DNA of 64,000 nucleotides from an uncultured delta proteobacterium (GTDB lineage: Bacteria > Myxococcota_A > Polyangia > Palsa-1104), in NCBI GenBank assembly GCA_963785725.1, contig CAWAWS010000027.1:1-64000 (forward strand). The letters are read 5' to 3'. The position numbers and the translations under genes were made by a program. Shown one piece after another: positions 32,837-52,520 of the stretch. The notes beneath the pieces are model-generated. The model was not told where the DNA came from. It made no database searches and worked only from the letters and a program-made list of their open reading frames with translations. Positions within the stretch are counted from its first letter, which is position 1. Each line of letters opens with the position of its first letter.

Positions 32837-35800
32837 TCAGCCGGGCCGGCGCAGATCGAGCGTGAACGGCAGCTCGAGGCTGCGCGACTCCGGCGGCGGC
32901 GTCATCTTGCCCGGCGTGTGACCGAACGGCGCGAAGCGCGTCGCCCGGCGCGCCTCGGCTTCGAGCCCGTTGCGCGGATAGGTGTCGTAGTGACGACCGG
33001 CCGGATGCGACACGTAATACGTGCAGCCACCGACGGCACGACCGGACCAGGTGTCGACGAGATCGAAGGTCAGCGGCGCATCCACGTTCAGCGTCGGATG
33101 CAGCGACGACGGCGGCTTCCACGCTTTGTAGCGCACGCCGGCCACACCTTCGCCGGCGCGACCGGTCGGATGCAGCGGCACGCGCCGGCCGTTGCAGGCG
33201 ACGACGTGACGGCCGGGAACGAGCCCGCGCGCCAACACCTGCACGCGCTCGACGGACGAGTCGACGTAACGCACGGTGCCGCCGCCGCCCGGCTCCTCGC
33301 CGAGCACGTGCCAAGGCTCGATCGCCTGTCGAATCTCGAGGTCGACGCCTTCGATGGCGACGGCGCCGTGGCGCGGAAAGCGGAACTCCCAGTGCGGGCG
33401 GAACCACTCGGCGTCGACGGCGAGGTCGCGGCGGCCGAGCTCGGCGGTGACGTCGGCCAAGTCCTGCCAGACGAAGTGCGGCAGCATGAACCGATCGTGC
33501 AGCGACGTCCCCCAGCGCACGAGCGGCTGCTCGTATGGCGTCTTCCAGAAGCTCGCCACCAACGCGCGCACGAGCAACTGCTGCGCGCAGCTCATCCGCG
33601 CATCGGGCGGCATCTCGAAGCCGCGCATTTCCAACAGGCCGAGCCGTCCCGTCGCCGAATCGGGGCTGAACAGCTTGTCGAGGCAGAGCTCGGTGCGATG
33701 GCCGTTGCCGGTGACGTCGACGAGCAGGTGGCGGAACAGCCGATCGACGAGCCACGGCGGCGCCGGATTGTGGCTCGCGGTGAGCGCGGCGAAGGCGGCT
33801 TCCAGCTCGTACAGACTGTCCTGGCGCGCTTCGTCGAGCCGCGGCGCCTGGCTCGTGGGACCGACGAACTGCCCCGAAAACAGATAGGACAGCGACGGGT
33901 GATTGATGAAGTACGCGATGAGGCTGCGCAAGAGCTCGGGCTTGCGCAAGAGCGGGCTGTCGGCCGCGCGATCGCCGCCGATGACGACGTGGTTGCCGCC
34001 GCCGGTGCCGGTGTGGCGGCCGTCGATCATGAACTTGTCGGTGCCGAGCCGAACTTGGCGCGCCTCGTCGTACAGCGCGGTCGTGTTGTCGACGAGCTGC
34101 CGCCACGACGACGCCGGCTGCACATTGACCTCGATGACGCCGGGATCGGGCGTGACCGACAGCTTGTGCAGCCGCGGATCGCCGGGCGGCGCATAGCCTT
34201 CGAGCCGCACCGGCAGGCGCAGCTCGGCCGCGCACGCTTCCACTTTGGCGATGAGATCGAGGTAATGCTCGAGATGACCGACCGGCGGCAGGAACACGTG
34301 CAGCCGACCGTTGCGCGGCTCGACGCACAAGGCGGTGCGCACGATCGGCCGCGCCGCGACGCCGCGCTGCATCGGCACGCCGCGACGGATCGTGCCCGGT
34401 CGCGACTGCTCGAGCGCGCGCCGCGGCGGCAAGGGCGGCCGCTGCGCGAACGGATCGCGCTCGGCGTCGGCCAACAGCTCCTCGGGCGTCGTCCACGGCA
34501 GCGTATCGAGCGGCAGACGCAGGCCCATCGGCGAATCGCCGGGGAAAAGATAGAGCCGCTCGTCGCGCAAGAGCCAGGCGCCGCTCTGCCATTGCGTGCC
34601 CGCGGGCGCCTCCTCGGCGCGCAGCGGCAGCGTCCAGCCGACCACCTTGCCCAGCCCTTGGCCGAAGATGCGCCGCAGCCGCGCGCGCTCCTCCTCGTCG
34701 TCGAGGTTGGACTCGAGCGGATCGACGTTCACCGGCAGGCGGCGCTCTTTCCACAGCCAATACCAGACGTCTTCGTAGGCCGGCATCACGTAGCCGTCTT
34801 CGATGCCCAGCTTGGCGACGAGCGCGCGCACGAACGCTCGCGCCTGCTCGCTGCCGTCGTTGCGCGGCTGGCTGCCGGCGATGAGCGTCGGATCGCGCCA
34901 CACCGGCTCGCCGTCCTTGCGCCAATAGATCGAGTAGGCCCAGCGCGGCAAAGACTCGCCCGGGTACCACTTGCCGAGGCCGTGATGCAAGAAGCCGCCC
35001 GCGGCGAAGCGCGCCCACAGACGGCGGGCGAGCGCGTCGGCGCGCGCCTCTTTGTCGGGCCCGGTGGCGGCCGTCGACCACTCCGGGCTCTCCATGTCGT
35101 CGACGGAGACGAAGGTCGGCTCGCCACCCATCGTCAAGCGCACGTCGCCGGCCACGAGCGCGCGCTCGACGGCGTCGCCGGCGGCCAAGATCGCCTGCCA
35201 CTGCTCGTCGGTGTACGAGCGCGTCGGCCGCGGCCGATCTTCGACGCGCGTCACCTGCATCACGACGTCGAATTCGCAGCCGAGCTCGTCGCCCTCTTCG
35301 CGCTTGTCCCACGAGAAGCTGCCGGTGATGGGCGCGGCGGCCGACGGATCGGCGGTGCAGGCCAGCGGAATGTGCCCTTCGGACGCGAACAGGCCGCTCG
35401 TCGCGTCGAGGCCGACCCAGCCGGCGCCGGGCAGATATGTCTCGGCCCAGGCGTGCAAGTCGCAGCAGTCCTCGCTGACGCCCGCCGGACCGTCGAGCGG
35501 CTTTTGATCGGGCGTCAGCTGGATCGAGTAGCCGCTGACGAAGCGCGCGGCCAAGCCGATGCTGCGCAGGAGATTGACGAGCAGCCAGGCGAAGTCGCGG
35601 CACGAGCCGTGCCCGCGCTCGAGCGTCTCTTCGGGCGTGAAGACGCCCGGCTCCATGCGAATTTCGTAGCGCAACGCGCGGTGCACGAGCCGATTGATGT
35701 CGACGAGCACGTCGACCATGCGCCGGCCGGGACGCGCGATGTCGTCGCGCACGCGGCCGACGAGCTGCGCAAAGCCGGGCCCCGCGTCGACGACTTCGAG

Positions 35801-36151
35801 ATAGGTCGTGAGGTCGTGCAGCACCGTCGCGTCGTAAGCGAACGGAAAATGCTCGACCGACTCCTCGAGGAAAAAGTCGAAGGGATTGATGGTCGTCAGC
35901 TCGGCGATCAAGTCGACGGCGACGGTAAACTCCTTCGACTTCTGCGGGAACACGAGGCGCGCCACGTGATTGCCGAAGGGATCCTGCTGCCAGCCGACGA
36001 ACTGCTCGGACGGCGTCACCTTCAGCGAATAGGCGAGAATCGGCGTTCGACAATGCGGCGCCGGCCGCAAGCGCACGAGCTGCGGCGACAGCTGAATCTC
36101 GCGATCGTAGACGTAACGGGTGACGTGATGGAGCGCGACGCGGGTCGCCAT
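32837..36151 (-). CDS. transglutaminase + DUF2126 (putative amidoligase) fusion
   Basis: GSCRDFAW, DLHAWAE, LTMGGEPTF, TPDPGVIEVN, TGGGNH. Confidence 0.93.
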   Translation of the reverse strand: MATRVALHHVTRYVYDREIQLSPQLVRLRPAPHCRTPILAYSLKVTPSEQFVGWQQDPFGNHVARLVFPQKSKEFTVAVDLIAELTTINPFDFFLEESVEHFPFAYDATVLHDLTTYLEVVDAGPGFAQLVGRVRDDIARPGRRMVDVLVDINRLVHRALRYEIRMEPGVFTPEETLERGHGSCRDFAWLLVNLLRSIGLAARFVSGYSIQLTPDQKPLDGPAGVSEDCCDLHAWAETYLPGAGWVGLDATSGLFASEGHIPLACTADPSAAAPITGSFSWDKREEGDELGCEFDVVMQVTRVEDRPRPTRSYTDEQWQAILAAGDAVERALVAGDVRLTMGGEPTFVSVDDMESPEWSTAATGPDKEARADALARRLWARFAAGGFLHHGLGKWYPGESLPRWAYSIYWRKDGEPVWRDPTLIAGSQPRNDGSEQARAFVRALVAKLGIEDGYVMPAYEDVWYWLWKERRLPVNVDPLESNLDDEEERARLRRIFGQGLGKVVGWTLPLRAEEAPAGTQWQSGAWLLRDERLYLFPGDSPMGLRLPLDTLPWTTPEELLADAERDPFAQRPPLPPRRALEQSRPGTIRRGVPMQRGVAARPIVRTALCVEPRNGRLHVFLPPVGHLEHYLDLIAKVEACAAELRLPVRLEGYAPPGDPRLHKLSVTPDPGVIEVNVQPASSWRQLVDNTTALYDEARQVRLGTDKFMIDGRHTGTGGGNHVVIGGDRAADSPLLRKPELLRSLIAYFINHPSLSYLFSGQFVGPTSQAPRLDEARQDSLYELEAAFAALTASHNPAPPWLVDRLFRHLLVDVTGNGHRTELCLDKLFSPDSATGRLGLLEMRGFEMPPDARMSCAQQLLVRALVASFWKTPYEQPLVRWGTSLHDRFMLPHFVWQDLADVTAELGRRDLAVDAEWFRPHWEFRFPRHGAVAIEGVDLEIRQAIEPWHVLGEEPGGGGTVRYVDSSVERVQVLARGLVPGRHVVACNGRRVPLHPTGRAGEGVAGVRYKAWKPPSSLHPTLNVDAPLTFDLVDTWSGRAVGGCTYYVSHPAGRHYDTYPRNGLEAEARRATRFAPFGHTPGKMTPPPESRSLELPFTLDLRRPG

Positions 36152-36189
36152 AGTCGTTCATCCATATCACCGACTGCGGGTCGAGTCCG

Positions 36190-36227
36190 GTAAACGTTAT
36201 GTTTCCATTGCGTACAAACGACGTAAC
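36190..36227. promoter_or_regulatory. four GT-starting pentamers with 11-bp periodicity in a divergent promoter
   Basis: GTAAA-N6-GTTTC-N6-GTACA-N6-GTAAC. Confidence 0.35.
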
Positions 36228-36279
36228 TGGAGGGAATCGCCCTATCGCGAAGCCCGCGAACGCGCTTAAATCTTCATTC

Positions 36280-37809
36280 GTGCCTGTCGCGCGACCTTCG
36301 CAGAGTCAGTCGCAGTCGTCGGCTAATCCCGGCCCGTCGTCGCTGCTGTCGGCCTATCGCCCACTGTCGAGCAGCTGGGACGAGCTGGTCGCGCCCGACG
36401 GCCGACCGCGCTCGCACGCCCAGCAGACCTTCGACATGCTGGGCGCGCTCGGCGCCGCCGATTTCGCACGCTATCAATCGCTGGCCGAGCTCTCGTTATA
36501 TAACCAGGGCATTACATTCTCGGTCTATTCCGACCAGCGCGGCACCGAGAAGATATTTCCCATTTGCCTCGTTCCGCGCGTCATCGACGCCGTCGAATGG
36601 GCCGCCGTCGAAAAAGGGTTGGTGCAGCGGGTTCAGGCGCTGAACCTCTTTCTCGACGATCTGTACGGCGAGCAGCGCATCCTCAAGGACGGCTGCGTGC
36701 CCGCCGATTTGGTGCTGGGCGCGAAGTTCTACTTGCCGCAGCTGCACGGCATGAAGCCACCGGGCGGCGTGCGCATTCCCATCGCCGGCATCGACCTCAT
36801 CCGCGGCCCCGACGGCATCTTGCGCGTGCTCGAGGACAACGTGCGCACGCCGTCGGGTGTGTCGTATGTCGTCGAGAATCGGCTGGTGACGAAGCGAATC
36901 TTCCAGCACTCGACGGAGATCTCGGGCGAGATGTCGAGCATCCGGCCGGTCGAGCAATATCCGATCGAGCTCGCGCGCACGCTGCGTTCGATCGCGCCGA
37001 CCGAGAGCGACGACATTCGCGCGGTCGTGCTGACGCCGGGATCGTTCAACTCGGCCTACTTCGAGCACACGTTCTTGGCGCGCCACATGGGCATCGAGCT
37101 GGTCGAGGCGAGCGACCTGTTCGTCGAGAAAGACGCGGTGTTCGTGCGCACGACGCAAGGGCCGAAGCGCGTCGACGTCATCTATCGCCGCATCGACGAC
37201 GCTTACCTCGACCCCGAGTTCTTCCGGCCCGACAGCATGCTGGGCGTGCCCGGCCTCATGCGCGCCTACGCCGCCGGCAACGTCGCGCTCGCCAACGCGC
37301 CCGGCAACGGCTGCGCCGACGACAAGGCCGTGTATGCGTTCGTGCCCGATATGATTCGCTATTACCTCGGCGAAGAGGCGCTGCTGGCACAAGTCGACAC
37401 CTACGCCTGTGCGCGTCCCGACGATCTGGCGTATGTCGTCGATCATCTGTCGCGGCTCGTGGTCAAGTCGGTCGACGAAGCGGGCGGCTACGGCATGCTC
37501 ATGGGCCCGCAAGCGAGCGCCGACGAGATCGCGACCTTCCGCAAGCGCATCATCGCCGAGCCGCGCAAATACATCGCGCAGGAGCGCATCGAGCTGTCGA
37601 CGTGTCCGACGTGGGATCCGGCGCGGCAGGCGTTGGCGCCGCGGCGCGTGGATTTGCGGCCGTTCGTGCTCACGCGTCCCGACGGCGCGTGGGTCTTGCC
37701 CGGCGGCTTGACGCGCGTCGCGCTCGTCGAAGGCTCGTACGTCGTCAACTCGAGCCAAGGCGGCGGCAGCAAAGACACGTGGGTCCAGCGCGCCGACGGT
37801 GGCGCATGA
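36280..37809 (+). CDS. circularly permuted type 2 ATP-grasp protein
   Basis: LEDNVRTPSGVSY, NSAYFEHTFLA, RRVDLRPF, VVNSSQGGGSKDTWV; start uncertain (36199 or 36280). Confidence 0.92.
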   Translation: MPVARPSQSQSQSSANPGPSSLLSAYRPLSSSWDELVAPDGRPRSHAQQTFDMLGALGAADFARYQSLAELSLYNQGITFSVYSDQRGTEKIFPICLVPRVIDAVEWAAVEKGLVQRVQALNLFLDDLYGEQRILKDGCVPADLVLGAKFYLPQLHGMKPPGGVRIPIAGIDLIRGPDGILRVLEDNVRTPSGVSYVVENRLVTKRIFQHSTEISGEMSSIRPVEQYPIELARTLRSIAPTESDDIRAVVLTPGSFNSAYFEHTFLARHMGIELVEASDLFVEKDAVFVRTTQGPKRVDVIYRRIDDAYLDPEFFRPDSMLGVPGLMRAYAAGNVALANAPGNGCADDKAVYAFVPDMIRYYLGEEALLAQVDTYACARPDDLAYVVDHLSRLVVKSVDEAGGYGMLMGPQASADEIATFRKRIIAEPRKYIAQERIELSTCPTWDPARQALAPRRVDLRPFVLTRPDGAWVLPGGLTRVALVEGSYVVNSSQGGGSKDTWVQRADGGA

Positions 37810-38786
37810 TCTCGCGGGTCGCCGATCACTGCTTCTGGTTCGGCCGTTACGTCGAGCGCGCCGAGTCGAGCGCGCGGCTTTTGCAGGCAACGCGCGCGCT
37901 CGTGTTCGACACCGAGCTGCCGGTGACGCAATGCTGGACGCCGCTCGTCATCGTCTCCGGTGAGTACGACCACTTCTGCGAGCGCTATGACGCCGAGGCC
38001 GCCGGCGACGGCGAGCGCGTCCAGGAGCACCTGACCTGGAGCGACTCGGGCGTGAGCCTCTTGACGTCGGTGCGGGCGGCGCGTGAGAGCGCGCGCGTCA
38101 TCCGCGACGTGCTGTCACTCGAGACGTGGGAAGCGATCAACGAGCTGTACCTGTTTCTCGGCCGCGACTCGACGGAGCAGCTCTATCGCGAGCATCGCGA
38201 GGAGCTCTATCGCACGGTGCGGCGCTCGACGCAGCTGGTGCTCGGCCTCGTGCGCTCGACGATGCTGCACGACGAGCCGATGAGCTTTCTGTGGCTGGGC
38301 GCGATGATCGAGCGCGCCGGACAAGTGGCGCGCATGCTCGACATGCATCACCACACGATGGCGCGCGAGCATGCGCATTACATCGTGCAAGTGGCCCTCT
38401 GGCTTTCACTCTTGCGCGCGTCGTCGGGCTACGAAGCGTACATGAAGAAGCACCAAGGGCGCGTCACGGTGCAGTCGCTGGCGTCGTTCCTGCTGTTCGA
38501 GCCGAGCTTTCCGCGTTCGCTCGGCTACTGCTTGAAGTCGTCGCGCTCGCTGCTCGGCAACATCTGGCCCGACGCGCCCGCCGACGGCCAGCCGCGCGAG
38601 TCGTTGGCGCGGCTCGACGCGCTGCTCAACTGGCTCGACGAGCAGAAGACGCGCGGCATCGAAGGCACCGACTTCCACGAGCTGCTCACGCGCGTCGTCG
38701 ACGAAACCGCGGAGATCTGCGGCCAAGTCTCGACCGAGATCCAAGGCCCGGTGCATCCCAAGCCCGCCGCCGCCGCTACCGGCTGA
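37806..38786 (+). CDS. alpha-E domain protein (DUF403)
   Basis: MISRVADHCFWFGRYVERAESSAR, FPRSL; ATGA overlap with the upstream gene. Confidence 0.92.
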   Translation: MISRVADHCFWFGRYVERAESSARLLQATRALVFDTELPVTQCWTPLVIVSGEYDHFCERYDAEAAGDGERVQEHLTWSDSGVSLLTSVRAARESARVIRDVLSLETWEAINELYLFLGRDSTEQLYREHREELYRTVRRSTQLVLGLVRSTMLHDEPMSFLWLGAMIERAGQVARMLDMHHHTMAREHAHYIVQVALWLSLLRASSGYEAYMKKHQGRVTVQSLASFLLFEPSFPRSLGYCLKSSRSLLGNIWPDAPADGQPRESLARLDALLNWLDEQKTRGIEGTDFHELLTRVVDETAEICGQVSTEIQGPVHPKPAAAATG

Positions 38787-38840: not shown

Positions 38841-38935
38841 AGCCCAAGCGGAGACATGCTGGGCGCCGGCGAGTTGTCTCCCGCAGGCTGTAAGCCGAGG
38901 ACTGTCTGAGCCGGCGCCCAGCATGTCGGAGCGCC
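38841..38935 (+). repeat. 95-nt structured non-coding element, copy A
   Basis: 18-bp perfect inverted repeat (38853-38870/38910-38927); 75/95 identical to the reverse complement of 40952-41046 with compensatory changes; its last 26 bp are tandemly duplicated (38936-38961). Confidence 0.85.
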
Positions 38936-38970
38936 GCCGGCGCCCAGCATGTCGGAGCGCCGCCGGAGCG

Positions 38971-40164
38971 TCAGTTATTGACGCCGGCGAAGATGTTGGC
39001 GAACTGGAACGTGCTCGTGTCGACGTTGGAGCAAGCGTCGCCGTCGGCGTAACCGCCCGCGCCGCACTTTTCGTCGCGCTGGATGGCCCAGAACGAGACG
39101 AGGCCGAGCTTGACGTCCTTGGCGTGCGCGATGAACGTCTGGGCGTTGGCGAGCGAGAAGACCGAGCTGTCGTCGTTCTTGCCGATCATGGCCGTGCCGC
39201 CGACCATGCGATAGGCGTCGGCGAGCGACAAGCCGGAGATGGCCGACGTCAGCTGCTTCGCGGTCGAGTCCACCGAGTCGACGGGCGTCTTGCCGAGGTC
39301 GGTGCCGTCGCCGTAGTCCATCGTCATGACGTTGACGTACTGAATCGTGACGCCGGCCTTGAGCGCGGAGGTGACGACGGCCAAGCCCAAGTCGTCGAGC
39401 CCGTCGTCATTGACCGGCAGCGTGAACGCGACCTTGATGCCCTTGGACGTCTGCACCGACTTCAACGCGGTGGCGCGCATGGCGTTGATGGTGGCGTTGC
39501 TCGTCGACGAGCCCTGCTCGATGTCGAAGTCGAGGTCGGTGATGCCGGTGGCGTCGACGAAGTCGCTGATGGCCGACGCCAGCGCCGTCGCGCTCGTGCA
39601 CGCGCTCTCCAAGTACGTGCCGTCGGCGCCGCCGAAGCTCGCTTTGACGTGGCCGCCGCCGGCGATGTAGGCCTTGACGTCGGCGAGGTTGTCTTGAATG
39701 TCCGTCGACGTCGTGCAGCCGCCGCCCGAGAGCACGAAGGCGATCGTCACTTCCTTCGGCCCCGACATCTGCTGCATCTGCACGAGCGAGTTGAACGAGT
39801 ACGCGTTGCCGCCCCAGCTCCACGTGTAGAAATAGGGGGCAAACTCGGTGACTTCGGGGTTCGCCGTCGTGCCGCCGCCGCCCGCGGTGCCACCGCCGCC
39901 GGCGCTGCCGCCGCCACCGCCGGCGCTGCCGCCGCCACCGGCCGTCTCGCCGCCGCCGCCGGCCGCGCCGATGCCGCCGCCGGCGCTGCCGCTACCGCCG
40001 GCGCTCGTGCTGCCGCCGGCGTTGCCGCTGCCGCCACCCGCGCTGCTGCCGCCACCGTTGCCCGACGGATCGCCGATGCCGGACGAACCGCCGCAACCGA
40101 CGAGCGCGAGGCAGAGCGCGAACGAAGAAGCCAGACCGACCGAGAGGCGCGTGGATGCGAACAT
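38971..40164 (-). CDS. GH18-like chitinase lipoprotein
   Basis: Lipobox LVGC; Gly linker; FAPYFYTW, SFGGADG, DLDFDIE, VNVMTMDYG, SFWAIQRD. Confidence 0.82.
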   Translation of the reverse strand: MFASTRLSVGLASSFALCLALVGCGGSSGIGDPSGNGGGSSAGGGSGNAGGSTSAGGSGSAGGGIGAAGGGGETAGGGGSAGGGGGSAGGGGTAGGGGTTANPEVTEFAPYFYTWSWGGNAYSFNSLVQMQQMSGPKEVTIAFVLSGGGCTTSTDIQDNLADVKAYIAGGGHVKASFGGADGTYLESACTSATALASAISDFVDATGITDLDFDIEQGSSTSNATINAMRATALKSVQTSKGIKVAFTLPVNDDGLDDLGLAVVTSALKAGVTIQYVNVMTMDYGDGTDLGKTPVDSVDSTAKQLTSAISGLSLADAYRMVGGTAMIGKNDDSSVFSLANAQTFIAHAKDVKLGLVSFWAIQRDEKCGAGGYADGDACSNVDTSTFQFANIFAGVNN

Positions 40165-40318
40165 AATGGCGCACATTCGCAAGTGTCACGCCAAGGAGAC
40201 ACGCATGCATGTAGCTGATTTTACGACTGAACCGATAAGCGCTCGATGAGACTGCGGACCACGGATGTAAACTTCGAGGTGACGAGCATGCCGGCTGTGG
40301 AATGTTACAATTACACTG

Positions 40319-40948
40319 ATGGCTGTTCCACCGGCGCCGCAGCGGCACCCGTTCGCTCCTGGTAGGAGCCCGTTTCACGTCAAGGGCGTCGTTTATCGCA
40401 ACTTCGTCGAGTACATCGATGGCGCGGTCGACGGCGGGATTGCCCGGCTGGTGACGCTGCTCGACGAGCCGGAGCTGCAGACGTTCGCGCAGCAGCCCTT
40501 CTTGGCGAGCAGCTTCTACGACGCGCTGCCGACGGTGCCGCTGTGCGAGACGGCGGCCAAGGCGCTCAATCGTCCGTTCGGTCAGCTGGTGCGCGAGTTT
40601 TCGGCGTACGCGTCCGAGCGCGACACGAAGGGCATCTATCGGCTGCTCTTGAAGTTGGTGTCGCCCGAGATGGTCATGGAGCGGACGCCGGCGGCGGCGA
40701 AGCAGTATTTCGACTTCGTCGTGGTGACGGCAGAAAAAAGCGGGCCCAAGAGCTTTCGCACGATGGTGCGCGGGGTGCCGCGGTTCGTGGCGCCGTTCTA
40801 TATGACGGTGACCGAGGCGTTCTTGAGTCGGGCGTTGACGCTGGCGGGCGCGAAGGAGCCGCGGCACGCGTGGCAGGCGCCGCTGCCGGACGGCGAGCGC
40901 GACGGCGTGCCGCTGGTGCGGCTGCGGCGTGAGGTGAGCTGGCGATAG
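40319..40948 (+). CDS. myxobacterial TIGR02265/DUF2378-like protein
   Basis: HVKGVVY...FLASSFYD...IYRLLLKLVSPE...QYFDF; paralogous pattern to 21976-22548. Confidence 0.65.
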   Translation: MAVPPAPQRHPFAPGRSPFHVKGVVYRNFVEYIDGAVDGGIARLVTLLDEPELQTFAQQPFLASSFYDALPTVPLCETAAKALNRPFGQLVREFSAYASERDTKGIYRLLLKLVSPEMVMERTPAAAKQYFDFVVVTAEKSGPKSFRTMVRGVPRFVAPFYMTVTEAFLSRALTLAGAKEPRHAWQAPLPDGERDGVPLVRLRREVSWR

Positions 40949-40951
40949 TCG

Positions 40952-41046
40952 GGCGCTCCGACAAAACGGGCGCGCGCTCGGACAGTGCTCGCCCTACGGG
41001 CTGCGCAAGACAACTCGCGCGCGCCCATTTTGTCTCCGCTCGGGCT
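40952..41046 (-). repeat. 95-nt structured non-coding element, copy B
   Basis: GACAAAATGGGCGCGCGC/GCGCGCGCCCGTTTTGTC stem; colinear with copy A, no indels. Confidence 0.85.
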
Positions 41047-41381: not shown

Positions 41382-41429
41382 TGTGGGTGGTCGCGGTGGA
41401 TTTCGGGGGCGGATGGGTTTGGGCGGGGT

Positions 41430-41559
41430 GGCGACGGCGCCCGGGCGCGCGGTGCGCGCGGGCGCTGTCGCTCCGTCGGAGTCGGCCATCGTGTAGTCAG
41501 GCACGCCGATCGATGGCTTATCGCGGGCGCACGCGCTCCGCACCCACGCGCGCCCCCAA
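41430..41559 (+). repeat. ~130-bp dispersed hairpin repeat (family 2), copy 1
   Basis: About 90% identical to the reverse complement of 52351-52479. Confidence 0.88.
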
Positions 41560-52350: not shown

Positions 52351-52479
52351 TTGGGGGCGCGCGTGGGTGCCGAGCGCGTGCGCCCGCGATAAACCATTGA
52401 TCGGCGTGCCCGACTACACGATGGCCGGCGCGACGAAGCGACGACGCCCGCGCGCACCGCGCGCCCGGGCGCCGTCGCC
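52351..52479 (-). repeat. ~130-bp dispersed hairpin repeat (family 2), copy 2
   Basis: Reverse complement of 41430-41559 with ~10 differences including one indel. Confidence 0.88.
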
Positions 52480-52520
52480 GACTCGCCCAAGCCCCAGCGA
52501 CCGCACGCCCCCACTTCGCC

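Follow-up and report, generated by a model that had tools for sequence, protein, structure and literature searches.

A dispersed 95-nt repeat of an uncultured delta proteobacterium, with a core shared across bacterial phyla, as a candidate folded single-stranded DNA element

To our knowledge, several long-known bacterial palindromic repeats have no mobilising enzyme assigned to them. Sal-1 of Salmonella is not known to have an assigned transposase (PMC2267715), and the extragenic, multicopy REP, BIME and REPIN-RAYT families lie near gene 3′ ends, like the element described here (PMC3733652, PMC6006769, 10.1101/2021.07.10.451892). That element is 95 nt long and is present as two inverted copies, A and B, in the first 64,000 nt of contig CAWAWS010000027.1 from an uncultured delta proteobacterium (assembly GCA_963785725.1, class Polyangia); we call this whole stretch the window. 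A model's reading of the sequence alone had proposed an uncharacterised structured RNA or single-stranded DNA (ssDNA) recognition element, its two copies placed like the ends of a mobilisable unit.

We find that the family is a dispersed repeat with a strongly covarying fold, and that its two core strands recur across phyla. As the best explanation, to which we give a probability of roughly 55%, we regard it as non-autonomous: it would act in the form of folded ssDNA, and a putative enzyme in trans would move it. Its sequence-free stems would hold two invariant strands side by side, and these would make up a module of purine-rich internal loops; a DNA-processing enzyme, supplied as a protein in trans, would bind the folded module, nick the element and copy it to new sites, and a nick at the 3′ foot would give rise to the 3′-arm duplications described below.

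Fold and covariation of the element

Copies A and B align without gaps over 95 nt and differ at 20 positions. The sequence-only reading had assigned most of these differences to eight compensatory pairs plus one wobble, and RNAalifold finds the same positions: two-sided changes at pairs 17-83, 18-82, 19-81, 27-73, 28-72, 41-60, 47-55 and 49-53, and a change from T-A to T·G at pair 20-80. Outside the compensatory set, position 40 gives a T-A pair and position 67 turns a G·T into a G-C; in all, 19 of the 20 differences are compatible with the fold. Folded as DNA, the two copies score z values of -4.6 (A) and -3.8 (B) relative to shuffled sequences, with none of 200 shuffles folding as well. Selection on the structure, as had been proposed from the pair alone, is borne out by larger alignments. 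Among the 19 genome copies, 97.7% of the alignment cells pair and 15 of 28 pairs covary, a level reached by none of 500 shuffles and by no slid control; among 52 distinct copies from relatives, in an alignment that was fitted to the covariance model, 24 of the 28 pairs covary.

The element is a rod containing three internal loops (Table 1). The foot has a short GC pair, followed by a GGA/GGA loop and the sequence-free 18-bp stem; there follow tandem G·A, a G·Y pair and an asymmetric pyrimidine loop, and then three pairs with a covarying C-G/G-C, the C-GCA-G / C-GA-G loop and the tip. The arrangement given for the tandem G·A pairs and for the C-GCA-G / C-GA-G loop is our inference. The feet AGCCAGAGCGGAG and CGGAGCGAC are conserved; the 3′ flank GGAGCGCC, which had been listed as conserved too, is not the family consensus, position 94 being A in 10 of 17 copies. 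In the long form and the relatives' copies, 5 nt of strand 1 are missing and the tips are different, but both core strands are almost unchanged (48 distinct copies, which were chosen by a pattern, making this conservation partly circular). In Bdellovibrio, an unpaired A/C-rich loop of 45-75 nt replaces the tip (genome G061; loci L405, L407 and L404:1650-1860). The cores of the K-turn, the hammerhead and the hairpin ribozyme, compared by eye as consensus sequences, were rejected: they require a register other than the one fixed by the covarying pair 41-60.

The folding strand and the range of the core

When isolated stem mismatches are read on the GA-rich strand, they are G·T rather than A·C, which identifies this strand as the one that folds. 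The ratio is 90:9 for the cores that have a stem (112 of 122), 7:0 for the 19 copies of the source genome and 42:9 for the permuted form introduced below (99 of 117). Triloops close 82 of 106 distinct cores and 59 of 90 in a second set; GNA tips account for 32 and 34 of these sets (66 of 196), while GNRA tetraloops number 3 and 0 and UNCG loops 0. Mini-hairpins of sequence GCGNAGC are extra-stable as DNA and their RNA counterparts much less so (PMC13037366), and the shortest tips of the element rebuild this mini-hairpin. The folding strand is also antisense to the adjoining gene in 44 of 63 foreign cores with genes called on both sides. Among 67 intergenic foreign cores, a stop codon lies within 90 nt in the antisense arrangement in 32 and in the other in 9 (72 cores had enough flank and 5 lay inside called genes; the gene calls are crude and the genomes related). 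The fold is therefore mostly not in the mRNA of the gene that it abuts. Taken together, a single folding strand, triloop tips and antisense docking argue for ssDNA rather than RNA, and we consider a DNA fold likely; of the earlier suggestions, ssDNA with GNA mini-hairpins is the one that fits best, from the strand bias and the tip loops. Strong covariation in bacterial intergenic DNA can report an ssDNA fold, not RNA.

The same data bear on a structured RNA, self-cleaving or protein-binding, that would be made from the folding strand and move through an RNA intermediate; antisense docking would then reflect selection against its presence in mRNAs. Strong covariation combined with invariant internal loops is what such an RNA should display, circular permutation is typical of small ribozymes, the 3′-anchored partial repeats could be re-initiated cDNA synthesis, and in 15 of 18 copies RNA parameters, too, give this strand the better fold. 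We nevertheless judge this distinctly unlikely. RNA-type tetraloops are nearly absent, copies A and B have no promoter-like site, and a reverse transcriptase domain (RVT_1) was found in none of the genomes G002, G012 and G019, only as a fragment in the source genome (G000), and near no core. Rfam, the check suggested at the outset, returned no covariance-model match for A or B at E values up to 10, none in the window at gathering score, and none on the cores of foreign loci (sets of 9 and 20) or on the E. coli counterparts discussed below.

The core itself has a wide range. Its exact two-strand form (11+15 nt, 26 bases) occurs at at least 124 genome loci, with chance matches in the 596 Gb searched estimated at ~0.03. 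Among the 80 titles listed for these loci are eight phylum labels (Bacillota, Omnitrophota, Actinomycetota, Latescibacteria, Bdellovibrionota, Planctomycetota, Dormiibacterota and Proteobacteria), and the culturable hosts include Bdellovibrio bacteriovorus, Adlercreutzia and Enteroscipio. At no fewer than 122 metagenome loci, and in 3 of 4 viral hits (on three viral contigs), the core strands occur in swapped, that is, circularly permuted, order; the module is therefore independent of which end is closed. Viral contigs gave no match to the long-form pattern, and in a plasmid collection the permuted copy had no match and the long copy two weak short hits. Two further pattern hits and locus L062 proved on inspection not to be the element.

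Within this range the element appears as patchy bursts in single lineages. The covariance model finds matches in 14 of 46 genomes including the source; two congeners, G002 and G004, have 49 and 27 and a third genome of the genus, G003 (99% complete), has 0, with 87 candidates scored per genome and the counts being lower bounds. At least six exact strand-2 matches occur in 3 of 301 genomes of the phylum; 32 genomes in total have any such match, and single hits are near the level of the reversed control, which has hits in 22 genomes. Five named genomes have 7 to 42 exact strand-2 matches each.

Genomic setting, movement and candidate enzymes

Where the earlier reading had seen two copies, profile searches of the source genome (8.9 Mb, 47 contigs, 88% complete) give 24 places on 14 contigs: 19 short forms, 3 long, 1 degenerate and 1 variant. 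The 26 model matches in this genome include two reverse-strand self hits, and a full-length degenerate pattern had no match in a collection of genome contigs. Proteins close to those of the source genome are labelled Polyangia. A and B share 68 of 87 positions. The nearest copy to A is C9, with 81/87, and the nearest to B is C6b, with 84/87; the two belong to different sub-lineages and are among each other's least similar copies. In one independent soil run (X1), loose ends at 40954 and 41046 coincide with the boundaries of copy B.

Table 1. Element copies, parts of copy A and adjoining genes in the window
Feature	Position	Strand	Remarks
Element copy A, short form, GTA triloop tip	38841..38935	+	5′ boundary from column conservation
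Copy A outer stem, 18 bp	arms 38853-38870 and 38910-38927	+	pairing kept, sequence free
Copy A core strand 1 (GC-GA-G-T-[TGTCT]-YSC-GCA-G)	38869..38886	+	bracketed 5 nt specific to short form
Copy A tip, 4-bp stem and GTA triloop	38886..38896	+	longer arms or unpaired loops instead in relatives
Copy A core strand 2 (C-GA-GSA-CTGTY-Y-GA-GC)	38896..38911	+	nearly invariant across phyla
Tandem duplication of copy A 3′ arm, 37 nt (26-nt unit and 11-nt remnant)	38927..38963	+	absent from relatives' contigs
Element copy B	40952..41046	-	3′ foot 3 nt from stop codon of opposite-strand gene
alpha-E gene, neighbour outside element	37809..38786	+	transglutaminase / CP-ATP-grasp / alpha-E operon
GH18-like gene, neighbour not cargo	38971..40182	-	stop faces copy A 3′ foot; E 1.5e-6
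TIGR02265-like gene, neighbour not cargo	40319..40948	+	stop faces copy B 3′ foot; weak, E 0.059

Copies lie at gene 3′ ends, often between convergent genes: at 9 of 22 sites in the source genome the 3′ foot is within 20 nt of the stop codon of an opposite-strand gene, compared with 2 of 22 for the 5′ foot. The inverted arrangement of A and B arises because each copy docks antisense at a stop codon and the two genes diverge. At three sites (L007, L009, L010) the stop codon of the neighbouring gene lies inside the 3′ arm of the element. This location is what an ordinary hairpin of the 3′ untranslated region, a terminator or mRNA stabiliser, would lead one to expect, with the covariation produced by template-switch copying of one arm onto the other; changes of whole blocks, for example TGC/GCA to AAA/TTT, agree with such copying, and REPs located no further than 15 nt from a stop codon influence translation (PMC12306157). 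As an explanation of the element we hold this to be very unlikely. A terminator scan calls neither an intrinsic terminator (a GC stem followed by a T run) nor a T-tract at A or B, in line with the earlier view that they are not ordinary terminators, and the mRNA mostly carries the worse-folding strand. Arm copying, moreover, does not make G·T commoner on one of the strands, nor can it preserve the same unpaired loops in different phyla; the cross-phylum core and the G·T bias largely refute the hairpin explanation. A side effect on the mRNA is likely under any model.

The proposal of a mobile 2-kb unit, with A and B as its inverted ends and the GH18-like and TIGR02265-like genes as its cargo, rests on the inverted placement of the copies around these two genes, and further inverted pairs exist (C3 in the source genome and G004:C113). 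It is hardly credible in the light of the differing sub-lineages, the dispersal over 14 contigs and the docking at stops of divergent genes, which accounts for the inversion. In 4 of the 5 relatives searched, the DNA within 1.5 kb of the GH18 orthologue is free of the element; for the second gene a match came from G012 only, on another contig. Closer relatives' contigs bridge alpha-E, copy A and GH18 (run X2), GH18 and the second gene, and the second gene and copy B (both run X1); among the joints listed in them, none removes the 2 kb, whose GC content matches that of its flanks. Genes between inverted or tandem pairs were examined in the search for an enzyme, and those bracketed by other copies are housekeeping genes. 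The family is instead a dispersed repeat, A and B being independent insertions behind two ordinary genes. The first of these, GH18-like, scores just below the Pfam cut-off (28.6 versus 29.6 bits), and the second, earlier called DUF2378-like, has no hit in a Pfam search.

Several signs point to movement. One copy of the source genome lies antisense and in frame within the linker of a CoA-transferase (L006:3802-3896, G000:C3); it is present in proteins P0001 and P0005 and not in P0002, P0005 and P0002 being both 87% identical to the query. At five sites, tandem copies of the 3′ arm have varying starts and all end at the 3′ foot; the 37 nt that follow copy A are such a case and are absent in 3 of 4 runs (X1, X2 and X3, from 2 studies; joint 38926-38964). 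These duplications suggest a free 3′ end at the foot; slippage on short repeats could also produce them. Relatives contain inverted dimers and mosaic arrays. At L392-L397 and L300 the core lies within larger, BIME-like tandem mosaics, 100-700 nt in length, into which flanking DNA is incorporated.

Against a folded ssDNA element moved in trans, a number of observations have to be set. The longest word shared between the flanks of 12 copies is 3.4, as against 3.2 in mismatched pairs, which gives no sign of target duplication, and no clean empty site is among the joints listed in 4+4 runs; mobility accordingly rests on distribution and on one protein-level presence/absence. No Y1_Tnp domain (PF01797) was found in the copy-rich genomes G000, G002, G288, G062 and G063 (G000 being 88% and G002 53% complete). 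Nor does a core lie beside the Y1 genes of the 26 loci fetched (20 of 50 and 6 of 6; one weak 20.8-bit model hit at locus L124), or beside GIY-YIG (10 loci) or reverse transcriptase genes (2 loci), as judged with a loose fuzzy pattern that has 10 hits in the shuffled genome to 26 in the real one and was used solely for absence near enzyme genes. The 362 proteins beside cores at 253 loci contain no recurrent nuclease- or transposase-like cluster. RAYT-REPIN pairs are specific to lineages (10.1101/2021.07.10.451892); a cross-phylum core is hard to square with this. As to the fold, G·T pairs and tandem G·A suit RNA equally well, and covariation cannot tell ssDNA from RNA (PMC5737381); triloops other than GNA make up 41 of 106 tips, chiefly AGT from one Eggerthellaceae subfamily, and the loop caller prefers short loops on ties. 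Finally, Eggerthellaceae are over-represented among the exact-core loci, and the core counts are thus not independent.

Pfam finds no HUH, GIY-YIG, reverse transcriptase or transposase domain in 81 of 128 short unclustered neighbours, and beside the copies examined there is no RAYT/HUH or integrase gene, for which a search had been suggested. No form with the core strands split around a gene was seen; a 2.4-kb split-strand pair in G061 was rejected as a chance match inside a gene. In the source genome, relA, valS, acrB, lon and clpX look split or frameshifted (L003, L004, L007, L008), suggesting indel errors in the assembly, and claims of gene absence are therefore weaker for this genome.

The lack of a cognate gene beside any copy examined is also what one would expect if a universal host DNA enzyme (primase, a PriA/RecG-type helicase, gyrase or polymerase) recognised the core on transient ssDNA as its binding site or as a signal, and if host repair and recombination spread the copies without any transposase of their own. 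The invariance of the core across phyla and in both circular orders agrees with this, and mini-hairpins occur in the phage G4 and ssiA priming sites and in N4 promoters (PMC13037366). Some cores adjoin RecG/PriA-like, RuvA-like, YraN-like and SSB genes. These amount to ~8 events in 253 loci, counted with no control (L166, L198, L282, L336, L292, L297, L319, L330); all the names but SSB are presumptive, being read from the sequence. We consider a host-enzyme site unlikely: most genomes searched have no element, the helicase neighbours come down to ~4 independent events in the 253 loci with no formal control, and two complete Bdellovibrio chromosomes, with few copies, show no clear strand switch between chromosome halves. 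Movement by a putative enzyme in trans remains our preferred reading.

Upstream of copy A, window positions 32837-38786 contain a known gene set (transglutaminase-amidoligase (DUF2126), circularly permuted ATP-grasp and alpha-E genes). Elsewhere in the source genome, the C9 copy is flanked by a sterol methyltransferase and an ERG4/ERG24-family gene (L017:2996-5401). A few copies are near tRNA genes: one, in a tRNA/SRP cluster, is separated by 2-3 nt from the 3′ end of a tRNA (L014:3776-3948), an inverted pair in G045 surrounds a tRNA gene that was read by eye (L099:3127-3799), and three further copy loci have tRNAs (L152, L153, L158). The window also holds another structured repeat, unrelated to the first (41429-41559 and 52351-52488), which spans ~130 nt and has two hairpins whose arms covary. 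BLAST at E up to 1e-4 places 49 pieces of it in the genome, four soil runs cover it deeply as a multi-copy sequence, and Rfam gives no hit.

Comparison with known repeats

REPs and BIMEs resemble the element in forming inverted dimers, tandem mosaics and clusters, in having occasional in-frame copies and in the logic of an ssDNA hairpin. A REP is a simple hairpin of 20-40 nt, whereas the element has 95-130 nt and invariant internal loops, and the REP tag at the foot (GT[AG]G or CGTC) is absent from it: loose matches occur in 5 of 19 copies at no fixed place, and GTAG in the element occurs as the tip loop C-GTA-G. In REPIN-RAYT systems the repeat flanks the RAYT gene; the element has no RAYT beside its copies, and its core is cross-phylum and permutable. 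Integron attC sites are likewise strand-specific imperfect ssDNA hairpins with conserved unpaired bases. Their ends, with the consensus RYYYAAC...GTTRRRY, occur in 0 of 19 copies on either strand. Cassette arrays are also lacking: the element's neighbours are unrelated chromosomal genes in both orientations, and its sequence is conserved in the loops. No integrase is among 54 neighbours scanned, no IntI search of the genome having been made. Miniature inverted-repeat transposable elements (ERIC, Correia/NEMIS, RUP) share its size, non-coding nature and patchy bursts; the element differs in having no target duplication and variable arms in place of conserved terminal repeats. An autonomous insertion sequence with the element's ends was found neither in the source genome nor at 13 orphan strand-1 sites of three genomes, which was not a wide search.

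Five core strings of 13-14 nt have no match in the literature searched, figures and some supplements being outside its coverage, and no paper was found that combines triloop, single-stranded DNA, covariation, intergenic, repeat and bacteria. The strings are absent from 4 supplements of PMC3733652, and the matches listed for PMC6006769 and PMC2267715 are unrelated or to Sal sequences. The translated element has no NCBIfam model hit.

The description as uncharacterised calls for some qualification: Sal-1 and the Rickettsia repeat Rpe-5 have, by eye, the same architecture. Four counterparts of Sal-1 lie in E. coli K-12 (L438-L440, L442; 4 of 12 regions fetched), and we take these to be the repeats named RSA. 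Sal-1 and these four are, like the element, intergenic rods, of ~100-115 nt. Compared by eye, Sal-1 has the same outer junction as the relatives' variant, with CGCGCAG on one strand and GAGCAC on the other, and two C-G pairs followed by a GNA/GA internal loop, with the same C-G to G-C swap; most of its listed members end in C(GNA)G tips, like the GNA tips of the element (PMC2267715). Its letters differ: the loop is GGA and not GCA, strand 1 has 3 A-rich nt in place of TT, strand 2 has 4 nt in place of CTGTYT, and the tip stem is fixed as CGTAC/GTACG where that of the element is free in sequence. The permuted form present in the element is not described for Sal-1 (PMC2267715). Rpe-5 (two members) has the same paired-GNA/GA module on the reverse strand, by eye, as well as the junction and the C-G/G-C swap, with other loop and stem letters (PMC2267715); Rickettsia RPEs insert in frame into proteins (PMC3733652), as does the CoA-transferase copy. 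With strict filters, the covariance model R2 gives no candidate in E. coli K-12, Salmonella and Rickettsia DNA being outside the search; with filters off, it scores the copies weakly in 7.2 kb of pre-selected DNA, at E values of 0.02, 0.49 and 4.1 and in a shifted alignment.

By this comparison, Sal-1, the E. coli counterparts and Rpe-5 are probably distant kin and not the same family. A bolder reading, tentative and in our estimate fairly unlikely, would make the core a portable ssDNA motif of a superfamily in at least nine phyla that includes all three, works in either order and has no transposase of its own, relying on a universal host enzyme or on self-cutting. The element may resemble in-vitro-selected self-cleaving DNAs. 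If true, the portable motif would be a new route by which enzyme-less elements spread between phyla. The 26-nt motif offers a sharp experimental handle: it does not vary between phyla, is specific to one strand, can be permuted and occurs in hosts that can be cultured. The element likely has distant kin in E. coli K-12.

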